Shown here: positions 11,251 through 12,669 of the stretch, in pieces
Layout: each line of letters starts with the position of its first letter
Numbering within the stretch: the stretch's first letter is position 1
Sequence record: PP925840.1
DNA from: Escherichia phage SholemSchwarzbard
Reading direction: 5' to 3' (one strand)
DNA: 64,000 bases
Notes under the pieces: generated by a model
Told to the model about the DNA's origin: nothing
Database searches by the model: none
What the model saw: only the letters and a program-made list of their open reading frames with translations
Position numbers and translations under genes: made by a program

Positions 11251-12669
11251 TTATGGATAGGTATAGATGATACCAGTTTCTAAAGCAGTTTTATGAATGA
11301 TGTATCCATTACGTGATTCTTGAACATCAACTTCTGGATAGTCTTTCATCATCTTCTGAAGGGTGTAACGATGCAGGTAGTATTTACTATCTGGATCTTC
11401 AGTTTTCCAATCTTTACCTTCTTCTGTCATTTTTTGGATTTCATCCATAACCCACCAACCGCACCAGATATAAGCTGAAGTACGATGTGGAAGAGGATGA
11501 ACATAAGGCAATTCACCTTCTGGTTCTGGAGCAACTTTATCAGTTACCTGAACTTGACCTTCTGCTGTGATAGTTTTGCTATCATAATCAGTGGCAGTAA
11601 CAGTTGCAGTAACTTCAATAGTTTGACTTCCGATAGATGATGTATCAACGGTGTATACATTAGTTGATTCTTCTACAGGAGAAGAATCTTTCTTCCATGA
11701 ATATTCGATTTGTGCTTCTTCTGGAGCATCAGTGACATTAGCCGTAAATGTAGCCGAAGCATCTTGCTGAACGTTAATAGAAGGAGGAGTCAATGTAACT
11801 TGTGGATTCATTGTCTTCTTATTAACTGTCAATGATACTTCATTAGAAGTAACTTCCTTTTCATTGTAATTTTCTGCCGTTACTTGCGCTACGCATTTAA
11901 TTCTTTTTACTCCACTTGTAGTTGGAGTATAGTTAAATGTAGAGTTAGTTTCTCCACCAACTTGTGAATCATCTACATACCATTTATATGTAGCAGACGC
12001 TCCAACAGGTTGAGAAACCAAGGCAGCAGTAAATTGAACTGGGGTTCCAATTACTCCAGCTGAAGGACTATCAGGAGTTACTGCTAAGGTAGTTGTCTGC
12101 GTCTTTTTATTAACAGTCAGTGACACTTCATTGGAAGTAACTTCCTTTGTATCATAATCTGTCGCGATTACTTGAGCTACACACTTAATTGTTTTAACTC
12201 CGCTTGTGTCAGGAGTGTAATTGAATGTAGCGTCAGTTGCTTCGCTTACAGGAGAACCGTCAACGTGCCATTGATACGTAGCAGATGCACCTGGCGGCTG
12301 TGAATCTAAGGCAGCGGTAAATTGAACGGCTGTTCCGATTACTCCCTCCGGAGGACTAGCAGGAGTTACGGCTAATGTAGTTGTCTGTGTTTTATTTTGA
12401 ACCGTGATAGTTGTAGTAGTTTCTGCTGTTTCAGGTTCAGATTCTGCAACTTGATTGGTTGCAACTACTTTAATAGTTTTTTGACCGGCAGGTCCTTTTA
12501 GTACATAACTAAAAGTTGCTGACGTTTCTTCCTGCGGAGCGTCGTCTACAGTCCAAGCATATGTAATAGGTCCATCTCCAGTTTCACCACTGGGTGTAGC
12601 AGTAAACTGCTGAGTCTGATCTATAACTCCAGTAGGTGTTTTAGGAGTTATATCAACTGTAAAAGCCAT
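11251..12669 (-). CDS. hoc: Highly immunogenic outer capsid protein Hoc, 472 aa, four Ig-like domains
   Basis: N-terminus and capsid-binding C-terminus (YVHPLPHR...WCGWWVMDEIQKM) as in T4 Hoc; 96 aa longer than the 376 aa recalled for T4 owing to a duplicated Ig-like domain. Confidence 0.9.
   Translation of the reverse strand: MAFTVDITPKTPTGVIDQTQQFTATPSGETGDGPITYAWTVDDAPQEETSATFSYVLKGPAGQKTIKVVATNQVAESEPETAETTTTITVQNKTQTTTLAVTPASPPEGVIGTAVQFTAALDSQPPGASATYQWHVDGSPVSEATDATFNYTPDTSGVKTIKCVAQVIATDYDTKEVTSNEVSLTVNKKTQTTTLAVTPDSPSAGVIGTPVQFTAALVSQPVGASATYKWYVDDSQVGGETNSTFNYTPTTSGVKRIKCVAQVTAENYNEKEVTSNEVSLTVNKKTMNPQVTLTPPSINVQQDASATFTANVTDAPEEAQIEYSWKKDSSPVEESTNVYTVDTSSIGSQTIEVTATVTATDYDSKTITAEGQVQVTDKVAPEPEGELPYVHPLPHRTSAYIWCGWWVMDEIQKMTEEGKDWKTEDPDSKYYLHRYTLQKMMKDYPEVDVQESRNGYIIHKTALETGIIYTYP
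11812..12387 (-). repeat. Tandem direct repeat, two units of about 288 bp, each encoding one Ig-like Hoc domain
   Basis: Units at about 11812-12099 and 12100-12387 align with few mismatches; the protein shows two near-identical segments of about 96 aa, each beginning with the motif TQTTTLAVTP. Confidence 0.85.

Follow-up and report, generated by a model that had tools for sequence, protein, structure and literature searches.

The hoc gene of the phage studied here encodes a protein with four Ig-like domains, arranged as D1-D2a-D2b-D3 and followed by a capsid-binding domain, in which the additional domain is a second copy of domain 2 (D2). This four-Ig gene is an old and widespread allele, already deposited in databases, and it fits the variation in Ig-domain number that is known for Hoc; in that sense it is ordinary. 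The reading that we hold with high confidence is that a common four-Ig allele has been inherited, that its two D2 modules are old and diverged, and that together they form a cassette whose copy number varies through recombination. Throughout, the window denotes the whole stretch of DNA analysed, 64 kb in length, whose source is a Tequatrovirus (T4-like) phage. The features of hoc and its immediate surroundings are as follows.

11227–11246, minus strand: GC-rich, terminator-like hairpin with a T-rich tail, immediately 3' of the hoc stop (terminator scan)
11251–12669, minus strand: hoc coding sequence, 472 codons plus a TAA stop at 11251–11253 (open reading frame list, phmmer)
11254–11529, minus strand: C-terminal capsid-binding domain, aa 381–472; 95.3 % nucleotide identity to T4 Hoc 285–376, dN 0.009
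11530–11817, minus strand: Ig-like domain 3, aa 285–380; Pfam Ig_3 and I-set at aa 289–373; AlphaFold2 (AF2) pLDDT ~81–94; aligns with T4 Hoc 189–284
11818–12105, minus strand: copy B, the second domain-2-type Ig domain, aa 189–284; the copy nearest to T4 domain 2
12095–12110, minus strand: A–B junction in the inter-domain linker ...GTT AAT AAA AAG / ACG CAG... (V-N-K-K-T-Q), from a codon-level comparison of the three domain boundaries
12106–12393, minus strand: copy A, the first domain-2-type Ig domain, aa 93–188 (TRF and a second repeat search); the ‘extra’ unit relative to T4
12394–12669, minus strand: Ig-like domain 1, aa 1–92; AF2 beta-sandwich, pLDDT ~85–94; 83.7 % nucleotide identity to T4 D1
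12676–12680, minus strand: hoc ribosome-binding site AAGGA, overlapping the inh stop codon (sequence read)

The identity of the gene is clear from its product and its position. The 472-aa open reading frame matched T4 Hoc in the PDB (5vf3_Z, 376 aa) with an E-value of 1.4e-213 by phmmer, and it combines a T4-like C-terminal domain and an N-terminal Ig string with a conserved position in the T-even late region. Over its first 25 kb, the window shares ~98 % identity with the genomes of Tequatrovirus phages that include PinkRuby, IsaacDaniel and ime09. In the window, inh (12679–13359, minus strand) lies upstream of hoc, and 24.3, 24.2 and rnlB lie downstream, as in the annotated T4 and IsaacDaniel loci. 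This is therefore the same gene at the same locus (inh-hoc-24.3-24.2-rnlB) as T4 Hoc, the highly immunogenic outer capsid protein (NP_049793, 376 aa; PDB 5vf3, 8t1x and 8t9r). The hoc ribosome-binding site, AAGGA, runs into the stop codon of inh, so that hoc and inh probably share one transcript, and at the position equivalent to the hairpin 3' of hoc a rho-independent terminator is annotated in phage GiZh.

The T4 late-promoter consensus TATAAATA was not found on the hoc strand upstream of either inh or hoc; its sole match near hoc, at 13373–13380, is oriented towards uvsW on the plus strand and precedes the start of that gene by ~30 bp. A late-promoter candidate with one mismatch, AATAAATA, lies upstream of inh on the minus strand. 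Across the window there were 18 copies of TATAAATA against 8.5 expected, and most of the plus-strand copies precede structural genes in the first 9 kb. Matches to sigma-70-like promoters between 11000 and 13500 were no more numerous than in shuffled sequence. Two neighbouring sites vary between phages. The gap between inh and uvsW in the window is only ~50 bp (13360–13409, with uvsW beginning at 13410 on the plus strand), and in T4 and IsaacDaniel this spot is occupied by segE, a 618-bp gene for a GIY-YIG homing endonuclease, so that a mobile endonuclease beside hoc shows a presence/absence polymorphism. Directly downstream of the hoc terminator, the 24.3 homologue (10945–11160, minus strand) is a small open reading frame that varies in length, with 71 aa in the window compared to 56 aa (171 nt) in T4 and 67 aa (204 nt) in IsaacDaniel.

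An earlier note on this DNA had proposed that Hoc carries four Ig-like domains instead of three and is 472 aa long instead of the 376 aa of T4, and both statements are borne out. Residues 1–113 align with T4 1–113 and residues 189–472 with T4 93–376 (556 bits), so that D1, copy B and D3 align along their full length and exactly one extra 96-aa unit, copy A (aa 93–188), is left over. Nucleotide identity to T4 is only ~84 % in D1 and D3. The extra segment is itself an Ig-like copy that corresponds to T4 domain 2, as indicated by Pfam, HMM, AF2 and Foldseek results. Pfam matched PKD and Ig-family models (Ig_2, Ig_3 and I-set) over both copies and domain 3. An HMM built from copies A and B detected D1 (31.8 bits) and D3 only weakly, at ~32 bits, which marks D1 as a distant Ig paralogue of D2 and implies that all four Ig domains are distant paralogues. 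AF2, using a 34-sequence alignment, modelled residues 1–380 as four all-beta beta-sandwich domains with pLDDT ~81–96; copies A and B reached ~86–95 and ~84–96, respectively, and their secondary-structure strings were nearly superimposable in the model. The C-terminal domain was modelled with low confidence (pLDDT 27–54) from a shallow alignment of highly similar sequences, and that part of the model was set aside. Foldseek comparison of the AF2 model with the PDB gave proteins with four Ig domains (Dscam, Sidekick and ICAM-5 D1–D4) as the top matches. The model also matched the N-terminal three Ig domains of RB49 Hoc (3shs, E 1.8e-10), which form a similar linear string of Ig-like beta-sandwiches, although RB49 Hoc has three Ig domains, shares only 17 % sequence identity with the window protein and was not detected by sequence search against the PDB at E ≤0.01.

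The repeat itself was recovered by two programs, close to the adjacent 288-bp units that the earlier note had placed at about 11812–12387. TRF reported a period of 288 bp and 2.0 copies at 11813–12387 (77 % matches, score 691), and the second repeat search paired 11813–12100 with 12101–12388 (11813–12388 overall) at 76 % identity. This was the sole tandem repeat scoring ≥80 in the window. When hoc was compared with itself the tandem unit was evident, as identity over 288 nt was 76 % at an offset of 288 compared to ≤44 % at any other in-frame offset, and the likeness of A to B is far above chance. The unit is exactly 96 codons and the two copies are related without an indel inside a single open reading frame; they are equal and adjacent, each corresponds to one structural domain, and the junction lies in a linker. 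At that junction, the likeness to the B–D3 boundary stops and the likeness to the D1–A boundary starts within the bases AAG-AC.

The copies are, however, neither highly similar as DNA nor near-identical as domains, as had been claimed. They differ at 69 of 288 nucleotide positions (219/288 identical, 76.0 %), share 74 of 96 amino acids (77.1 %) and are 56 % identical at third codon positions, and the longest run identical between them is 15 nt. Nei–Gojobori estimates gave a dS of ~1.13, a dN of 0.14 and a dN/dS of 0.12, and as judged from these sequences both modules are kept under purifying selection. The amino-acid differences were concentrated in predicted loops (14 of 22; Fisher P=0.012). 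Taken with the dN/dS of 0.12, this would fit two functional modules with diversified surfaces, as far as the structural model is a guide to where the loops lie.

The composition of D2 in related phages indicates how these modules have been exchanged. Mosaics were scored at the 69 A/B-informative nucleotide sites in ~19 alleles at the DNA level, and the wider survey beyond these used protein sequences or the span of matches. Clustering the D2 units as proteins had been tried as a way of separating A and B into clean clades, but reciprocal clades were absent because the units are mosaics, and site-pattern analysis was used instead. In four-Ig alleles, the first unit is mostly A-type and the second mostly B-type. 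In three-Ig alleles, including those of T4, Kha5h, TadeuszReichstein and others, the single D2 is a block mosaic of A- and B-type sequence. T4 D2 carries the B state at 48 and the A state at 16 of the 69 sites, with an A patch at unit positions 228–245; over the whole unit its nucleotide identity is 88.9 % to copy B (dS 0.27) and 77.8 % to copy A (dS 0.885).

Two phages carry exact chimeras of the two types. GiZh D2 reads as A at positions 1–245 and B at 261–288, without private substitutions; the one exception within its A block is a B state at site 227, which is shared by every compared allele except those of the window and IsaacDaniel, and for this reason it is probably copy A of the window lineage that carries a derived base there. 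The crossover interval in GiZh, 246–260, is the longest A/B identity tract (15 nt), and read from the sequence this placement is the mark that unequal recombination leaves when it contracts a four-Ig allele to a three-Ig one. ADUt D2 is likewise an exact A/B mosaic with 0 private changes, in a backbone that is 97.9 % identical to the window. In GiZh, identity to the window is 98.9 % in D1, 94.4 % in D3 and 96.7 % in D4 (the C-terminal domain), and the greater divergence of D3 and D4 implies that its parent was not simply a window-like genome; an origin of the GiZh D2 in a cross between phages appears equally possible. Given these block mosaics, at least some three-Ig alleles in close relatives of the window phage look like contractions of a four-Ig allele and not like its ancestor. 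Viewed across the family without an outgroup, the sequences could reflect either contractions that came after an ancient duplication or expansion on repeated occasions. An explicit description of the A/B mosaic structure, or of four-to-three contractions of Hoc, was not found in the literature searched, and the mosaic evidence for copy-number contraction and module shuffling by recombination would be the modest new element of our analysis.

The same mosaics bear on a different origin for the tandem, in which an unequal crossover during mixed infection joined two divergent three-Ig alleles, one with an A-type and one with a B-type D2, so that the divergence of A from B predates their arrangement in tandem. 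T-even phages recombine freely in mixed infections (PMC9271167), single-copy D2 units exist that are almost wholly A-type (GiZh and ADUt) or mostly B-type (T4 and the IMG/VR contig L008), and the D1–D2 and D2–D3 linkers share an imperfect microhomology (GTT..AAT AAA AC) that could template such an exchange. The near-pure A-type alleles, however, have a B-type 3' end and no private changes, which makes them resemble derivatives of a tandem A–B array more than its parents, and none of the 12 three-Ig alleles examined had a full A-type unit that kept its A-type 3' end. We therefore regard this joining of two alleles as unlikely and favour the inherited four-Ig allele with old, diverged modules.

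Under the favoured reading, the 96-aa, 288-bp domain-2 module occurs twice in hoc, the gene of a dispensable capsid-surface fibre, as two deeply diverged sequence types, A and B, which are both held under purifying selection and differ chiefly in predicted loops. In T-even phages a cassette of one, two or three D2 modules yields proteins of 376, 472 or 568–570 aa, and its copy number and content would shift by homologous, often unequal, recombination, either within a genome or between co-infecting phages. Gene conversion or unequal recombination between units would remove one unit. The four-Ig state here is old, and some three-Ig relatives would be secondary contractions of it. The unequal recombination suggested by the earlier note is in keeping with this as a route for changing copy number, given the mosaics and the linker boundaries, whereas its application to a recent duplication in this genome is not upheld. 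The cassette has the variation that such a process predicts, as alleles of one, two and three units occur in close relatives, alongside the exact chimeras of GiZh and ADUt. More tentatively, the D2 module may be a population-level cassette of one to three copies, drawn from two or three ancient types that balancing or diversifying selection maintains and that unequal recombination and gene conversion constantly reshuffle, a cassette which tunes fibre length, glycan-binding valency or antigenicity. Were this broader and more doubtful proposal true, the window allele would be one state of a recombinational system that tunes the capsid surface.

The four-Ig form proved to be common. A megablast search with the window hoc matched 680 phage records, but coverage of the full gene could not be used to count four-Ig alleles, as three-Ig records also appeared ‘100 % covered’ because their single D2 matches both copies of the query. 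Four-Ig alleles were counted instead by match span in a spread sample and with a 100-nt query that had the A–B junction at its centre (E ≤1e-20). Among 60 evenly sampled hoc-matching records, the match spanned ~1419 bp, the four-Ig length, in 17 and 1131 bp, the three-Ig length, in 33. The A–B type of junction was found in 220 of the 680 hoc-bearing records, about a third, and all 220 matches were in a single piece covering ≥86 % of the 100-nt query, with half-matches excluded by the E-value threshold. Carriers include RB27, Yersinia phage PST, IME340 and one Mosigvirus, and the GenBank record of Mosigvirus moskry already has a repeat_region annotated inside hoc. T4, with its three-Ig Hoc, thus represents only one of several natural length classes, and roughly a third of relatives have the four-Ig form; as an allele, the four-Ig hoc of the window is routine, and hundreds of GenBank records already contain it under the name Hoc.

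Comparison of Hoc length across relatives, which had been put forward as a check, gave the same picture at the protein level. Among the best 120 protein clusters from a collection of 5.8 billion proteins, 80 were of 376 aa, 29 of 472 aa and 8 of 568–570 aa, with one, two and three D2-type units in the three classes, respectively. The window hoc is 91–98 % identical to the 472-aa relatives found by the full-length hoc search, and 98.0 % identical to that of IsaacDaniel. The 472-aa Hoc proteins of Hafnia phage IsaacDaniel, Ge15, RB27, Yersinia phage PST and Mosigvirus moskry have the same length and the same D1-A-B-D3-D4 order, and these relatives differ from the window only allelically; individual modules carry different A/B mosaic patches. 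In the 568–570-aa proteins of Escherichia phages UGKSEcP1 and UGKSEcP2 and related metagenomic contigs, the first unit is mostly A-type and the second mostly B-type, as in the window. Unlike the window protein, they have three D2-type modules and five Ig domains, and the third unit is further diverged (dS 0.66–0.78 to the others). PinkRuby is 98.2 % identical to the window over 25 kb but only 94.6 % in hoc; hoc is thus far more diverged than its surroundings, which fits a hotspot of recombination and diversity.

Other Hoc proteins have gained or lost whole Ig domains in different ways. Hoc homologues have been described with 1 to 10 Ig-like domains (PMC10385173), and T4-like phages are known to differ in the number of their Ig domains (PMC13435897). 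Two published variants depart from T4 by whole Ig domains, with mucin/MUC2 binding assigned to Ig domains: the 283-aa Hoc of PhiPNJ-9 is missing domain 3 (PMC11853027), and the Hoc-like protein of Klebsiella phage PMBT63 has an additional Ig-like domain (PMC13435897). This loss and this gain are other than the change seen in the window. A distant clade of T4-like phages, ~48 % identical to the window protein (IMG/VR contigs L011, L012, L013 and L017), contains Hoc proteins of 282, 377 and 471–472 aa. In L011 and L012 the extra domain is a D3-type duplicate, with domains 3 and 4 being 58 % identical, which points to an expansion independent of that in the window and at a different position in the Ig string. 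An explicit account of the 472-aa four-Ig Tequatrovirus Hoc, or of its 288-bp repeat, was not found in the literature searched, which held only general statements on domain number and other variants (PhiPNJ-9, PMBT63 and Muldoon).

A and B are separated by a dS of 1.13 in both the window and IsaacDaniel and by one of 1.15 in Mosigvirus moskry, and copy A of the window is 98.6 % identical to copy A of IsaacDaniel, with a corresponding value of 99.7 % for copy B. For comparison, dS between the window and T4 is only 0.24–0.48 in D1, D3 and D4. As the copies are positionally orthologous across phages and separated by a dS of ~1.13, the paralogues predate the divergence of these phages. A recent slipped or unequal duplication specific to the window lineage, which would have left a near-identical and potentially unstable repeat, is accordingly very improbable. 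As such an event would have it, the repeat keeps the reading frame perfectly and its unit matches a single domain exactly in length, and T4, the reference phage, has a single copy only; the divergence and positional orthology of the paralogues led us to reject it, since long identical tracts are absent and the same A and B are found in 220 other records. Of the clean in-frame duplication that the earlier note described, the reading frame and the absence of an indel therefore stand, and a fresh event in this genome does not. As the longest identical run is 15 nt, length heterogeneity that could readily be detected by PCR would also be unlikely. Mis-expansion of a repeat during assembly is hardly credible, for although tandem repeats are a classic source of error, the 69 differing positions in 288 allow reads to be placed unambiguously and the identical architecture recurs in hundreds of independent assemblies from different laboratories.

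In T4, one Hoc monomer occupies the centre of each gp23 hexamer, giving 155 per capsid, and the protein is dispensable for growth. As the capsid-binding domain is almost identical to that of T4, the window Hoc should also sit at hexamer centres. T4-like phages are held to be tethered to mucus by Hoc, which is also the main scaffold for display when T4 is engineered into nanoparticles and vaccines. The four-domain T4 fibre is given as 180 Å by Fokine et al. (PMC10385173), and the fibre encoded here would be longer by about one Ig domain, roughly 45 Å. The Ig domains of Hoc bind fucosylated mucin glycans (PMC9271167; PMC11853027), and the four-Ig protein would be expected to display a second copy of the domain-2 glycan/mucin-binding surface. 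In PhiPNJ-9, the D2 residues S183-L184-T185 were reported to be required for MUC2 binding (PMC11853027). The S-L-T motif occurs in the window Hoc at 183–185 and again at 279–281, and the allele may thus present two putative MUC2-binding sites; the motif lies in the last beta-strand, and the reported PhiPNJ-9 mutants may simply have destabilized the fold. Any effect on adherence to mucus or cells, as raised by the earlier note, we infer from this literature. The distribution of length classes provides context when mucus adherence, pharmacokinetics and immunogenicity are compared across therapeutic T-even isolates, and the natural 376-, 472- and 568-aa alleles are ready material on how fibre length and valency relate to adherence.

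Several four-Ig hoc genes in GenBank, among them those of FriedrichMiescher (L034), SfPhi01 (L035) and SHFML-11 (L036), are interrupted by a +1 frameshift within five to six consecutive G. The site in copy B is common to FriedrichMiescher and SfPhi01 and reads AGTGGGGGT there, compared to AGTGGAGT in the window (equivalent to window position 11914), and the SHFML-11 frameshift lies near codon 13 (equivalent to window position 12632). These split genes could be homopolymer sequencing errors or a real inactivation of a dispensable gene; the window hoc is intact and has no G-run at either site. One 472-aa Hoc cluster (P0028) bears the source name ‘endonuclease [Shigella sonnei]’. Furthermore, MG010123.1, a 32-kb record named ‘Staphylococcus phage SAJK-IND’, contains a T-even hoc that is 95.6 % identical to that of the window, and this record is probably mislabelled or contaminated.
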